Positions 15,238-25,182 of a stretch of DNA of 64,000 nt are shown piece by piece. The translations under genes were made by a program, and so were the position numbers. Below the pieces are notes generated by a model, which saw only the letters and a list, made by a program, of their open reading frames with translations, did not search any database and was not told the DNA's origin. The DNA is from an uncultured Candidatus Saccharibacteria bacterium (GTDB lineage: Bacteria; Patescibacteriota; Minisyncoccia; Phycocordibacterales; UBA6899), in assembly GCA_964469335.1 (NCBI GenBank), contig CAYXYK010000004.1, positions 23,230 to 87,229 on the forward strand. Reading direction: 5' to 3'. How positions within the stretch are numbered: the stretch's first letter is position 1; each line of letters opens with the position of its first letter.

Positions 15238-16365
15238 ATGGAACCACTTGCCGCGCAGCTCAGACCAGACACCTTAGATGGCTACGTCGGGCAAAAACAT
15301 CTCCTCGGAGAGGGGAAGCCACTTCGTGCAGCGATCCTCGGCAAGCACTTGTTCTCGTTCATCCTATGGGGGCCGCCCGGAGTGGGGAAGACCACCATCG
15401 CACGCATCTATGCAAATGCGGTCGATGCGAATTTCTATGAGCTCTCTGCGGTCTCGGCAGGGAAAGATGATATCCGTGAGATCGTTGCTGCGGTCACCAA
15501 CGCGAAGCCAAGCATTCTCTTTCTCGACGAGATCCACCGTTTCAACAAGGCTCAGCAGGATTTCCTTTTGCCGTTCGTCGAATCAGGGAAGCTGACGCTG
15601 ATCGGTGCGACCACTGAGAACCCGAGCTTCGAGGTGATACCGGCACTCCTCTCACGTGCGCGAGTATTCGTGCTTGAGAGTCTCTCAGACGAAGACATGC
15701 GTGAGATTCTCGCCCGTAGCAAGGTGAAGATGAAGGATGATGCACGCGACTGGCTGATCGCGGTCGCGGGCGGTGATGCGCGACAGGCGCTTACGGTGCT
15801 GGATGCGACAGTGCGACTCTACAAGACCGTCACGCTCGAACACTTGAAGGAAGCGGTCCAGTCGAAACATCTCCGCTATGATAAAGCGGGGGAGGAGCAC
15901 TATAACACCATCAGCGCCTTCATCAAGTCGATGCGCGCGTCACAGGCGGATGCCGCGATCTACTATCTCGCGCGAATGATTGAGGCAGGGGAGGACCCGC
16001 TCTTCATCGCGCGCAGAATGGTGATCTTCGCCAGTGAGGACATCGGGCTCGCGCAGCCGACAGCGCTCGTGGTAGCAAATGCCGTCTTTCGGGCTTGCGA
16101 AGTGATCGGCTACCCAGAGTGTCGGATCAATCTCGCGCATGGTGTCGCGTATCTTGCGAACTGCAAGAAGGATAGGAGTGCCTATGATGCGATCGGAGCG
16201 GCACTAGCGGACGTGAAATCACTCGGCAATCTCGAGATCCCGATGCACATCCGAAATGCGCCGACCAAACTCATGAAAGAGCTCGGTTATGGTGATGGAT
16301 ATGCGATGTATGATAAAGAAAGTTATCTGCCTGAAAAACTCAAGAATAAGAAATACTTAGGATAA
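15238..16365 (+). CDS. rarA: replication-associated recombination protein A (AAA+ ATPase, MgsA/RarA)
   Basis: Walker [10 protein letters not shown]; [11 protein letters not shown]; C-terminal MgsA domain ..[36 protein letters not shown].. Confidence 0.9.
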
Positions 16366-16393
16366 AAAATGATGGGCACCCCGAGGGGTGCCC
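16362..16393 (-). terminator. rho-independent terminator (minus strand) downstream of small CDS 16439..16600; may also stop rarA readthrough
   Basis: GGGCACCCC-ga-GGGGTGCCC perfect 9-bp stem. On the minus strand it is followed by TTTTTT. Confidence 0.7.
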
Positions 16394-16438
16394 ATGCTGT
16401 TCACTGACTATCCGTCAGCGGACGACGCGGTGCGTGCG

Positions 16439-16600
16439 TCAGCCGCTGGTGTTGCCGACCTCGACGTGGTTCTGGAGGTGGCCGCCGCCCTGGCCGGTGT
16501 CGAAGTAGTTCACGCCGATGTCGCCCTTCTGCGCCGCGTGCTGAGCCGTCGTCGTGGCCGGAGGCGAGTTCATGCCGTGGTCGGTGCGGTTGCGTTTCAT
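16439..16600 (-). CDS. small hypothetical Gly-rich protein (53 aa) in a GC-rich islet
   Basis: Perfect SD AAGGAGA 6 nt before ATG. MKRNRTDHGMNSPPATTTAQHAAQKGDIGVNYFDTGQGGGHLQNHVEVGNTSG. Own terminator downstream. Local GC is far above the window average. Confidence 0.45.
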   Translation of the reverse strand: MKRNRTDHGMNSPPATTTAQHAAQKGDIGVNYFDTGQGGGHLQNHVEVGNTSG

Positions 16601-16766
16601 GCCGTTCTCCTTGGAGTTGGCGGTTTGAGGAACACGGGCGGTCCGATGACCTTACCCATATGTAGTCTAGCAAAAACTCTTTTGCTGGCAAGTACTTTCG
16701 TGTATATCAGGAGGGTGTGGATAACTTATTTGCGGAGTTCTCCGAGAGGAGTATAGTGAGTGAGTT

Positions 16767-16796
16767 GGAGGGACCTTGGTCCCTCCTCTTTTATTG
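16767..16796 (+). terminator. rho-independent terminator-like hairpin (plus strand)
   Basis: GGAGGGACC-tt-GGTCCCTCC followed by tcttttatt. No obvious plus-strand CDS upstream. Confidence 0.5.
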
Positions 16797-17008
16797 CCTC
16801 GACAACGATGCATAAGAGATCTCGGACCAGGTTCCCTCCACTTTAATGGTTAATCACAATTCTATGGTCAAGGCTAAAGAAGTGGACTACGAAGGAATCG
16901 CAATCATCGTCACTACGTGTTCGATGTTCGCACTCTGGAGTGTCGTCTCAGTAGCAGTCCCCACGCTTGGGGTACTCGCGTAGACCCAGAAGGGATTACA
17001 CCAAATAC

Positions 17009-17041
17009 GGCGCCTAGCTAAATGCAGGCGCCTTTTTGTTT
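17009..17041 (+). terminator. rho-independent terminator (plus strand) ending an apparently non-coding ~200 nt region
   Basis: GGCGCCT-agctaaatgc-AGGCGCC followed by tttttgttt. Confidence 0.55.
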
Positions 17042-17049
17042 CTCGGCTT

Positions 17050-17135
17050 TCAGAGCATGCGGTCTTCTGCGTTGTGGGTCCCAAGTCCTAGTTCACCGTA
17101 CGAATAGTATGGCTCACTTCGCCACTCGCCTTACA
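17050..17135 (+). repeat. novel intergenic repeat element, degenerate copy E4
   Basis: ..CTTCTGC GTTGTGGGTCCCAAG..caCCGTACgaataGTATGGc..cacttcgccactcgcc. Hairpin 2 retains pairing only through a G.U wobble. Confidence 0.55.
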
Positions 17136-17353
17136 GGCGCTGTACACCTTTTGGATTTCTCGGAAAAAATCTCAAAAGGTCTTGCACGGTGGCCCCATAA
17201 GAATGGGTTCCCAATAGCCACCGCTCACCCACGCCTTGAATCCCATCAATTTCAGAAAGCCGATTTCCCAGCATCCTTGTCACAATTCGGGAAATGGTGG
17301 GTTATCCAAGGTAGCGCTCGAATTAGCCCAAGAAATAGGGTACCATTTAGGGA

Positions 17354-22850: not shown

Positions 22851-24128
22851 TCACTTCTTGGCGCCGGCGGCGGCACCGGTCTGGAGCGTGCCGGTCGCAC
22901 GAACGGTGTCGGGCACGACACGCGACTTGAGGTAGGAGCCTTGCGGCCCACGGCACATCTTGACCTTGGCGCCGGATGCATCGGTGAATTCCTCCACCTT
23001 GCAGGCGACGCGCTCTTGCTCGATGCGCTGGGTCGGTGCTTCCATCTTCCAAGTCATGCCGGCGATGGTGCTCAGGATGCCGCTGACTTCGTCTCGGGTG
23101 GGACCCTTCGGAACTTCGACCAACTTGTACGCGCCCGGGAGCTCGCACGGGATGATCTGGACCTTGGTGACGATGCGGGACATCGCGGAGGACGCGCCGC
23201 CGCCGGCGTTGCCGCCGCCGTTGGTGCCTGCGACGCCGAGGGACATCGAGCTTGCTGCCGAAACGGTCGGAAGTGCCGTCGTGATGATGGACTGCGAACC
23301 GAACCGGCGGATCACCTTTTCACCTGCTTCGGTGAAGGTGCGCTCGATGTACATCAGCTGCTCCTTGGTCGTTTCGTCGAAGACTGGAGCGATCTCCATG
23401 TCCTCGCCGAGGTCGATCTTGGTATTGGTGAAAAAGCCGATGTGGGTACCGAGCACTCCCTTCCTGGTGACCGTCATGAGCGGGCCGCACGCGGTGCGCT
23501 CGGTCACGATCTGACTGGTGGTCACCACCGATGCGGGTGTCGGCATGAAGAGCGGCAACACCGAGACCTGCTTGTAGTTCGTGGTCGTTGTGGTGTTGGT
23601 CGTCGTCGAATTGCCGGCCCCGTTACCCGTCGCGTTTCCGCCTGCTGCATTGCCGCCAGCGGCGTTGCCTCCGGCCGCGTTTCCGCCTGCTGCATTGCCT
23701 CCGGCACCGCCGTTGGCGGTCGTTGCGTTGTTCAGGGTGGAAGTGAGTGCTTGACGCTGGTCCTGCGAGAGGCTCGCGATCAGCTTCTGTTGCTGTTCGG
23801 TCGAGAGCTTGTTCCAGTTGTCCGAGATGGCCTTGGCATCACCGCCGGTGGCGTTGCCGCCGTTTGCGAGTGCTGCTGCGATCGCCGCCGCGGCCGCCTT
23901 GGCTTCCGCTTCGGCTTTTGCTGCCGCGTCGGCGTCCGAGGAGGGGTTCGCATTGACCGTGTCGGTGACGGTGATCGGTTGACCACCGGGAGTCGGCGAC
24001 GGGCAGACGTACTTGCCGGCCTCGTTCAGGAGCGAGATGCTCCCGTCGGGGCATTTGGGCCACGCGTGCGCGCTGGCAGCGAAGCCGAGGCTGAGGATGG
24101 CGAAGGAAATGGCATTGAGCTTCTTCAT
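22851..24128 (-). CDS. secreted hypothetical protein with Ala-rich region and (AGGNA)n repeat
   Basis: Signal peptide MKKLNAISFAILSLGFAASAHA. GGNAAGGNAAGGNAAGGNAAGGNA tract. Lies in a GC-rich segment. Confidence 0.7.
   Translation of the reverse strand: MKKLNAISFAILSLGFAASAHAWPKCPDGSISLLNEAGKYVCPSPTPGGQPITVTDTVNANPSSDADAAAKAEAEAKAAAAAIAAALANGGNATGGDAKAISDNWNKLSTEQQQKLIASLSQDQRQALTSTLNNATTANGGAGGNAAGGNAAGGNAAGGNAAGGNATGNGAGNSTTTNTTTTTNYKQVSVLPLFMPTPASVVTTSQIVTERTACGPLMTVTRKGVLGTHIGFFTNTKIDLGEDMEIAPVFDETTKEQLMYIERTFTEAGEKVIRRFGSQSIITTALPTVSAASSMSLGVAGTNGGGNAGGGASSAMSRIVTKVQIIPCELPGAYKLVEVPKGPTRDEVSGILSTIAGMTWKMEAPTQRIEQERVACKVEEFTDASGAKVKMCRGPQGSYLKSRVVPDTVRATGTLQTGAAAGAKK
23631..23706 (-). 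repeat. 15-nt in-frame tandem repeat (about 5 units) encoding GGNAA repeats
   Basis: gcgtttccgcctgctgcattgccgccagcggcgttgcctccggccgcgtttccgcctgctgcattgcc. Confidence 0.6.
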
Positions 24129-24141
24129 GTTGTGGTACTCC

Positions 24142-25182
24142 TTACTTGAGGGTTGTTGATGCGAGAAGGTTGCTGTTGTTGTCGGGAACGGCCCCTTGCA
24201 AGAGGAACCGGTTGATGAAGCCCGAGACTTCGGCGTAGGCCGAACGTTCTCGGTCGGTCGTCGGCGGGGGGATCCCGCCTTGGTACTTCGCTTTCCAGAT
24301 CAGGATCGCGAGAGGTGTGACGTCGTGCTCTCCTCCGACGATGTGTTCCAGTTCCCGTTTGATGGGGAGGATGGTGTCGATGTCGGGTGTTGCGGACCGT
24401 ACGGACCAGTTGCCGCCCTCGGCGTGATACACGAAGCTGTAGACGAGACCGTGAGCGCGCACAGTATACTCGCGTGCACGTACCTCGCGTTTGTCTCGCC
24501 ACTTCGCCGTGACCGATTGCCACAGGGCATTGTCCTCGAATTGCATCAGCGCGAACTCTTCGCCCGCGACCACTGAGATGTGCTCGTATTCGTCGTGTAC
24601 GACCTTGTCCGAGAGCTGGCTCGCGACGTCGGTCGGAAGATCGCTCTTCACGAGGAATGTTTCCAGCGTGCAGTTCGTGCACGGCCGGTCGAGATCAGGG
24701 GTCGTTTCGAGAGAAGTCGTCTGCACCACTACTTGGGTGCGGATGATGCGCCTCTTCTTGGCTGGCTTGGTCGGGATCGGCGGCAGTGCCTTTGTGGCGC
24801 TGCTCTCTTGTACCGTGACCGGTCGCTTCGCCGAGTCGGCGATGTCCTTCTGGACGATCGCGATCGCTTCTGCGAGGGTTGCCTTGCCTTTTTCTGCTGC
24901 GACAACCTTTGGAGCAGTAGCGAGCGTTTCCGTGACGTTCACTCGCACATCCGCTTGGGGCGGAGGGAGGGGGACGTTGTAGGTCTCGCCGATGTACATC
25001 CAATAGAGCGGAGCCTTGATCTTCCTCTTGTTGGCGTTGATGATCTGGGCGGGGGTCGTGCCGGTCGCTTTCGCAACCCGCTCGACACTGTCGCCGCGTA
25101 TCGCGGTGTGCGTTTCTGCGTGTGCAGCCATGCCGAAAAGGCAGAGCGCAAGCGCAAGAAGAGCACGGATGATGATGGTCAT
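24142..25182 (-). CDS. LysM domain-containing secreted protein
   Basis: Signal peptide, then LysM (TAIRGDSVERVAKATGTTPAQIINANK). Unknown C-terminal domain. Co-oriented with the GGNAA protein. Confidence 0.7.
   Translation of the reverse strand: MTIIIRALLALALCLFGMAAHAETHTAIRGDSVERVAKATGTTPAQIINANKRKIKAPLYWMYIGETYNVPLPPPQADVRVNVTETLATAPKVVAAEKGKATLAEAIAIVQKDIADSAKRPVTVQESSATKALPPIPTKPAKKRRIIRTQVVVQTTSLETTPDLDRPCTNCTLETFLVKSDLPTDVASQLSDKVVHDEYEHISVVAGEEFALMQFEDNALWQSVTAKWRDKREVRAREYTVRAHGLVYSFVYHAEGGNWSVRSATPDIDTILPIKRELEHIVGGEHDVTPLAILIWKAKYQGGIPPPTTDRERSAYAEVSGFINRFLLQGAVPDNNSNLLASTTLK

Follow-up and report, generated by a model that had tools for sequence, protein, structure and literature searches.

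A small GC-rich islet beside rarA in a Patescibacteria lineage, and the case for a translated orphan gene

In a 64-kb stretch of contig CAYXYK010000004.1 from an uncultured Candidatus Saccharibacteria bacterium, hereafter the window, the gene rarA (15238..16365) is followed by a short islet of high G+C content (GC), beyond which lie a gene for a 45-amino-acid (aa) membrane peptide and a module encoding an extracytoplasmic function (ECF) sigma factor and an anti-sigma-like protein. The conserved genes of the neighbourhood are those for a flavoprotein, a Zincin_1 protein, RarA, the ECF sigma factor, the anti-sigma-like protein, a TMEM175 protein and malic enzyme. The islet, which we also call the cassette, comprises a terminator, a 3′ untranslated region (UTR), a small open reading frame (ORF), a 5′ UTR and a promoter and nothing more, all convergent to rarA, and we consider it a candidate for an acquired, lineage-restricted protein-coding gene. 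An initial annotation, made from the letters alone, had proposed the ORF, its Shine-Dalgarno (SD) sequence and its terminator, and all three were located; it had not listed the promoter. The features of the islet are the following.

16366..16711, minus strand: cassette of about 345 bp, a complete transcription unit delimited by alignment to the empty sites of lineages L102-L104
16691..16664, minus strand: sigma-70-type promoter TTGCCA-16-TGcTAGACT with an extended -10, found by scanning; predicted transcription start site at about 16655-16657
16601..16657, minus strand: 5′ UTR with two hairpins, the second of which (16621..16601) pairs with part of the SD
16612..16606, minus strand: SD sequence AAGGAGA, 5 nt upstream of the ATG
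16439..16600, minus strand: 53-codon ORF MKRNRTDHGMNSPPATTTAQHAAQKGDIGVNYFDTGQGGGHLQNHVEVGNTSG, with ATG and SD intact in seven of seven lineages (49-55 aa)
16404..16418, minus strand: small 3′ UTR hairpin CTGAC/GTCAG, invariant in five lineages and not retained in L100 or L101
16364..16395, minus strand: intrinsic terminator of the small gene, with a stem (16372-16382/16385-16395) of 11 perfect bp followed by T6

Homologous islets, which the initial annotation had suggested looking for in related genomes, were found in carrier lineages that number seven in total, all of them syntenic, with the cassette lying between rarA and the module formed by the 45-aa membrane-peptide gene, the ECF sigma gene and the anti-sigma-like gene. 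Five distant syntenic contigs (L100-L104) were fetched through orthologs of the sigma factor. A search for relatives based on RarA was unhelpful because this protein is too conserved (65-81% across phyla), and the small gene was present in none of the 80 loci found through a RarA-based genome scan; the window RarA itself matches Patescibacteria (Paceibacteria/Parcubacteria-like metagenome-assembled genomes) with an identity of at most 81%. A GC-rich islet is present in L100, where the ortholog has 55 aa, and in L101, where it has 49. L102, L103 and L104 are without it, and their alignment shows the rarA stop codon directly abutting the block GGGGTGTTGATAACTT, which corresponds to the window from 16712 onward. 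When a tree was built from rarA and the sigma gene, the seven carriers formed one clade and the three lineages with empty sites branched successively outside it. Monophyletic carriers and three empty sites in outgroups therefore speak for one gain, and indicate that the cassette entered in a single event in the common ancestor of a small, Paceibacteria-like clade of Patescibacteria. The islet combines a presence/absence polymorphism and a precise empty site with an atypical composition, and we found neither repeats nor mobility genes at its borders, nor an internal duplication or paralog in the window or the outgroup loci from which it might have come. The small gene had been suggested to be horizontally acquired: the insertion part of this suggestion stands, given the three empty sites and the monophyletic carriers, but a donor or an outside homolog was found nowhere. 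Acquisition thus fits the pattern of an islet, yet this pattern would not distinguish horizontal transfer from another origin.

When 5.8 billion protein clusters were searched, and 1.84 billion representatives with a hidden Markov model (HMM), only four or five short proteins with 96-48% identity came up, and every homolog found is encoded at the same syntenic place, next to rarA, the 45-aa ORF, the ECF sigma gene and the anti-sigma-like gene. A profile search with seven sequences retrieved the clade itself only. The 53-aa product, its orthologs and two alternative ORFs had no match in Pfam, NCBIfam, PHROGs or PADLOC (Pfam and NCBIfam at E≤10), profile searching of the PDB and tblastn comparison with phages and plasmids yielded none either, and a scan of metagenome contigs with the protein pattern gave no confirmed match. 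An HMM match outside the clade (P0005) was rejected as a repeat-protein false positive, and the five matches of a metagenome scan with the 5′ UTR DNA pattern were chance occurrences in unrelated genes. The product had been described as not assignable, and searches of the BLASTP and HMM type agree, with no relatives beyond the clade and no family. Judging from these comparisons, the small gene is of the taxonomically restricted kind already known, and is a member of no known family.

The GC of positions 16400-16599 is 0.67, against 0.49-0.59 in 2-kb bins of the window and a window mean of about 53%. A GC far higher than in the rest of the window had been reported for this region; the rise is real, but the wording was somewhat overstated, since the ORF region (0.704) is only the second-highest 162-nt peak, after one of 0.71 at 23842, and not a unique outlier. 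The excess resides mainly in the third codon positions. GC at the first, second and third positions (GC1, GC2 and GC3) is 0.62, 0.47 and 0.94, respectively, while the other genes of the window have a GC3 of 0.57-0.81, and no other window ORF of at least 30 aa reaches 0.94. Of the 52 codons, 49 end in G or C, whereas the codon usage of the surroundings predicts 31.3 (exact P=1.2e-8); glycine is encoded by GGC in nine of nine cases (27% locally). The same composition is found in all seven orthologs (GC3 0.90-0.96, GC1 0.51-0.64, GC2 0.44-0.59). The window's other compositional outlier, which holds its highest local GC peak, consists of two adjacent minus-strand genes (22851-25182; 425 and 346 aa; GC 0.60-0.64, GC3 0.74-0.81), whose products have N-termini resembling signal peptides and gave a single weak LysM hit.

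When the reading frames were compared among the carriers, the minus-strand ORF was the sole frame that keeps its start codon, SD and stop in all seven lineages. We measured its length between four anchors, namely the ATG, CCNCCN (two prolines, PP), GACACSGGCCAG (the motif DTGQ) and the stop codon. From ATG to PP the distances were 36, 36, 36, 36, 30, 36 and 33 nt (with a manual correction for L094, where the pattern had first matched an earlier out-of-frame CCNCCN), from PP to DTGQ they were 63, 63, 66, 69, 66, 72 and 60 nt, and from DTGQ to the stop codon 60, 60, 60, 60, 57, 57 and 54 nt. This corresponds to at least eight length changes, every one a multiple of three, for which the chance expectation is about (1/3)^8; in contrast, the UTRs changed in length by 1, 2, 4, 8 and 10 nt. 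A second line of evidence comes from the third codon positions, where 60-80% of the changes in the ORF exchange C and G, compared with about 12% in rarA and the sigma gene (Fisher p 2e-4 to 1e-12), in which about 85% of the changes exchange G/C for A/T. GC3 has kept its narrow range despite about one change per third-position site. Such substitution patterns show that the high GC3 is actively maintained, and they exclude a passively decaying foreign relic. To our knowledge, no RNA-level cause of an actively maintained three-base G/C periodicity has been described. Retention of frame, start, SD and stop, length changes in threes and a maintained GC3 together argue for translation of the minus-strand frame.

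The signals around the ORF are conserved as well. Both the -35 and the extended -10 hexamers are kept in the seven lineages, with a variable spacer and variable upstream sequence, and in L007 unrelated sequence has taken the place of about 55 bp at the promoter (4941-5000 of L007, matching window 16660-16715) but still supplies TTGCAT-16-TGcTATGCT, the downstream transcript being unchanged. In the 5′ UTR hairpins, 93.9% of the cells are paired, as opposed to 32-50% in controls with the partners slid, and the second hairpin shows two pairs with compensatory double changes (CG<->GC and UA<->CG) between subclades. The terminator occurs with four stem sequences among the seven lineages, always as a hairpin with a T-run and with four pairs changed on both sides, and its T6 shares positions with the stop codon of rarA, the convergent gene. 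Such features mark what would be a working transcription unit whose translation start is regulated or damped. Two further candidates were rejected. An upstream AUG at 16655 (minus strand) opens 20 codons whose stop overlaps the main start (ATGA), but its frame is not conserved, being fused to the main ORF in L100, reduced to 11 codons in L094 and absent from L101. A structured noncoding RNA across the ORF body was ruled out, since the islet had no Rfam match even at E≤10, the mRNA fold was no more stable than shuffles (z-score -1.3), and predicted pairs inside the ORF were broken in divergent sequences, with an unfavourable covariation term; only the UTR hairpins and the terminator were supported.

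Modelling of the product with AlphaFold2 and the family alignment gave a predicted local distance difference test score (pLDDT) of 56, a predicted template modelling score (pTM) of 0.13 and no secondary structure, and the protein is predicted to be intrinsically disordered. It has no signal peptide, hydrophobic segment or cysteine. The only residues invariant among the seven orthologs are M1, PP (13-14) and DTGQ (34-37). Hydrophilins are defined by more than 6% glycine and by a grand average of hydropathy (GRAVY) below -1 or a mean hydrophilicity above 1 (quoted in PMC4190154). The orthologs range from 4 to 18% glycine and from -0.47 to -1.15 in GRAVY, and the window protein, with 17% and -1.02, falls within both limits. 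Glycine exceeds 6% in six of the seven (it is 4% in L101) and GRAVY is below -1 in four (L100 has -0.99, L094 -0.62 and L101 -0.47), so three of the seven orthologs do not satisfy both. A role as an abundant hydrophilin-like protectant, or as a small protein that binds through a short motif, is a tentative suggestion that we would not expect to hold, and the "stress peptide" of the initial annotation remains a guess.

We hypothesize that the islet is a real, translated and acquired orphan gene restricted to this lineage, a reading that we favour, though only a little beyond even chances. The cassette would have entered the spacer between rarA and the 45-aa peptide gene once, as a self-contained unit of promoter, leader, ORF and terminator, and the small gene would be transcribed from its own housekeeping-type promoter, with a leader that may partly mask the ribosome-binding site. 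Translation would yield a cytoplasmic, hydrophilic and intrinsically disordered protein of about 50 residues, in which only the N-terminal basic stretch with PP and the central DTGQ motif could be sequence-specific, while the remainder would be constrained in length, frame and general hydrophilicity rather than in sequence. Selection would hold the third positions at C or G, the simplest reason being that a strongly expressed message has to be stable or efficiently translated, and we infer high expression of the small gene.

Several results weigh against this reading. The ratio of nonsynonymous to synonymous changes per site (pN/pS), compared over five lineages, was 1.6 in the frame of the ORF and 0.7-1.3 in the other five frames, and purifying selection was detected in none of the six. 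Parsimony steps per site, counted for the four genes on the same seven-taxon tree, were as follows for codon positions 1/2/3.

rarA: 0.20/0.08/1.74
sigma gene: 0.25/0.14/1.40
45-aa neighbour: 0.13/0.13/0.59
small ORF: 0.95/1.45/0.98

Positions 1 and 2 of the small ORF (0.95 and 1.45) therefore approach the third positions of rarA and the sigma gene (1.4-1.7), which suggests that the protein sequence is almost unconstrained, as expected for a product that would be non-functional or barely functional. Openness of the ORF is weak evidence taken alone, because three frames are free of stops for compositional reasons, although the third of them lacks a start codon. Neither the glycine-richness nor the hydrophilin limits are kept in L094 and L101. 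As to optimal codons, the window holds no EF-Tu, GroEL, DnaK, S2 or L2 gene that could serve as a codon-usage reference.

The remaining features of the surroundings are these.

16388..16756, plus strand: 122-codon ORF, a compositional by-product and not a gene
16716..16724, minus strand: perfect DnaA-box 9-mer TTATCCACA, just outside the islet and between two divergent promoters
16767..16796, plus strand: hairpin GGAGGGACC/GGTCCCTCC with a T-run, its stem (16767-16775/16778-16786) of 9 perfect bp
16846..16983, plus strand: 45-aa hydrophobic membrane-peptide gene MVNHNSMVKAKEVDYEGIAIIVTTCSMFALWSVVSVAVPTLGVLA, older than the islet and upstream of the ECF sigma operon
17009..17040, plus strand: terminator of the 45-aa gene, GGCGCC..GGCGCC + TTTTTG, its stem (17009-17032) kept and its loop replaced in L012, L094 and L100

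The hairpin at 16767..16796 had been thought to have no plus-strand gene to terminate. It is present in ten of ten lineages and, where the cassette is missing, lies 50-90 nt past the rarA stop codon (about 60 in L102), so that it predates the islet; most simply, it would be the ancestral rarA terminator, parted from rarA by the insertion, and/or a 5′ element of the 45-aa gene. Its place is the 5′ end of that gene's conserved leader, which can alternatively fold as a long hairpin (16766-16840; -43 kcal/mol, z=-4.3) that competes with the inner, terminator-like one; in L012 and L007, substitutions on one side only leave the pairs of the long hairpin intact. On the plus strand, the cassette hairpin (16372-16395) is without a T-run and no other terminator was found before 16767, and it is therefore plausible that read-through from rarA is antisense to the small mRNA. 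The 45-aa peptide, for which no family could be assigned, has one and the same sequence in 13 loci and 87% identity in L094, with changes almost all at third positions, and its gene is present in the outgroups without islet. A possible promoter (TTGCGG-16-TATAGT, 16730-16757, plus strand) with conserved hexamers and a variable spacer lies a few nucleotides upstream of the leader hairpin. No second perfect match to the DnaA-box 9-mer occurs in the window, one per window being near the chance expectation; the box is kept in all seven carriers, while the relatives without cassette have TTATCAACA.

Downstream of the 45-aa terminator, the plus-strand interval 17040-17260 is highly variable, and a stretch of about 100 nt within it (about 17115-17215) occurs only in the window and L094 lineages. 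It is followed directly before the start of the ECF sigma gene by a block of about 90 nt (17262-17353) that is nearly invariant in ten lineages, contains an inverted repeat (17285-17298/17342-17355) and is likely a regulatory region of the sigma operon.

Among the alternatives, it is improbable that the transcript acts as an RNA, either regulatory or antisense, with the ORF incidental or a translated spacer, and with rarA and the convergent small gene antagonistic to each other in the manner of an excludon. Between the window and L007 the UTRs are better conserved than the ORF (no change in about 137 UTR nt, compared with nine substitutions and one codon insertion in the ORF), the amino-acid positions evolve at a near-neutral rate, and with 16767 as the sole terminator-like site past rarA on the plus strand, rarA read-through would be fully complementary to the small mRNA. 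This scenario leaves the maintained three-base periodicity, and the restriction to multiples of three of length changes in the ORF only, without a known cause at the RNA level, and the fold, covariation and Rfam results given above speak against it, as does a complementarity to the neighbouring peptide mRNA that is not above chance.

Equally improbable in our judgement is that the ORF is expressed but functionless, that is, in neutral drift either as a proto-gene or as a foreign gene in decay. A pN/pS of at least 1, the seven invariant residues, the lack of homologs and the predicted disorder would all be accounted for. However, a drifting ORF would hardly have retained its frame, start, SD, stop, promoter and terminator in seven of seven lineages while synonymous sites of its neighbours accumulated about 1.4-1.7 steps per site, nor would PP and DTGQ have stayed invariant, and the constraint on third-position G/C is active rather than a relic.

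We also considered that the trait under selection could be the translation of the ORF rather than its product, which would account for the conservation of frame, length and third positions alongside varying amino acids. A ribosome-loaded, G/C-clamped message convergent to the 3′ region of rarA might control rarA by antisense or transcriptional interference, or might itself respond to replication status by way of the perfect DnaA box next to it, following the checkpoint logic of Sda; we hold this to be quite unlikely.

The initial annotation had proposed a precursor like those of ribosomally synthesized and post-translationally modified peptides (RiPPs). That the product is a RiPP or bacteriocin precursor, in which a conserved leader would be joined to a variable core, now seems very unlikely: the 25 N-terminal residues are more conserved than the C-terminal half, whose fast evolution could reflect diversifying selection, but in the conserved neighbourhoods of ten lineages no gene for a modifying enzyme, a protease or an exporter lies within about 5 kb, the cassette arrived by itself, the product lacks cysteine, a signal peptide and any leader-cleavage motif, double-glycine or other, it matches no leader or core profile (NHLP, Nif11, lasso, lanthipeptide and similar), and its best-conserved motif, DTGQ, would fall within the supposed core. 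That the plus-strand ORF is the real gene deserves almost no credence: it is longer than the minus-strand ORF, its frame is stop-free across the ORF region in the five lineages compared and a gene caller picked its 162-aa equivalent in L100, yet it is cut to 71 codons in L094 and to 44 in L101, its start varies among lineages and in the window lies inside the terminator stem without an SD, it crosses the promoter of the small gene, its translations are dissimilar between subclades and match no family, its pN/pS is 1.28, and its openness is expected because its first codon position complements the G/C-rich third position of the small gene, which makes plus-strand stops rare. Its dismissal as antisense noise in the initial annotation was therefore sound, the minus-strand ORF being the one conserved in seven of seven lineages.

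Orphan small genes are abundant in bacteria of the candidate phyla radiation and almost never analysed. The islet offers a clean case, with the gain on one branch, exact empty sites and expression signals under selection. Its signature, in which synonymous positions are held at G/C while nonsynonymous ones are free, would fail the standard validation of genes by the ratio of nonsynonymous to synonymous substitution rates (dN/dS), and gene callers can fail on real small genes too: in two of the seven lineages the gene was mis-called or missed, the public calls giving a 162-aa ORF on the opposite strand in L100 (3108-3596) and no gene at the site in L101 (3127-3600). It would be interesting to see what role a newly acquired, disordered protein of 50 residues could play in a minimal-genome symbiont, for which the small gene is a tractable candidate.

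Compared with known systems, the locus resembles a type I toxin-antitoxin pair in that a small transcript runs divergently from the gene for a hydrophobic peptide of 45 aa, whose leader is highly structured. Unlike in such pairs, the peptide gene stands without the cassette in the outgroups, the cassette encodes a hydrophilic ORF, and neither PADLOC nor Pfam gave a match; a pairing with the 45-aa peptide mRNA was rejected, its duplex energy being no better than that of shuffles. The small checkpoint protein Sda of Bacillus subtilis, the promoter of which is controlled by DnaA boxes, is also of about 50 aa, and here the predicted start site has a perfect DnaA-box 9-mer about 60 nt upstream, beside the replication-associated rarA; however, there is no sequence similarity, and the one box is outside the cassette and equally near the putative promoter of the neighbouring peptide gene. 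Hydrophilins and small stress proteins (Escherichia coli YciG, B. subtilis GsiB, KGG-repeat proteins and yeast Hsp12) share with the small gene that they are small, very hydrophilic, often glycine-rich, disordered, encoded by single genes and strongly signalled, but they have no sequence relation to it (Pfam, including the KGG motif family, gave nothing at E≤10), and their limits fail in L094, L101 and, as a borderline case, L100. In kind, the small gene belongs with taxonomically restricted small genes, which are likewise confined to a narrow clade, short, disordered, fast-evolving and easily missed or mis-called; what differs here is that exact empty sites place the gain on a single branch, and that an unusually strong and actively maintained G/C bias at third positions is combined with near-neutral amino-acid positions.

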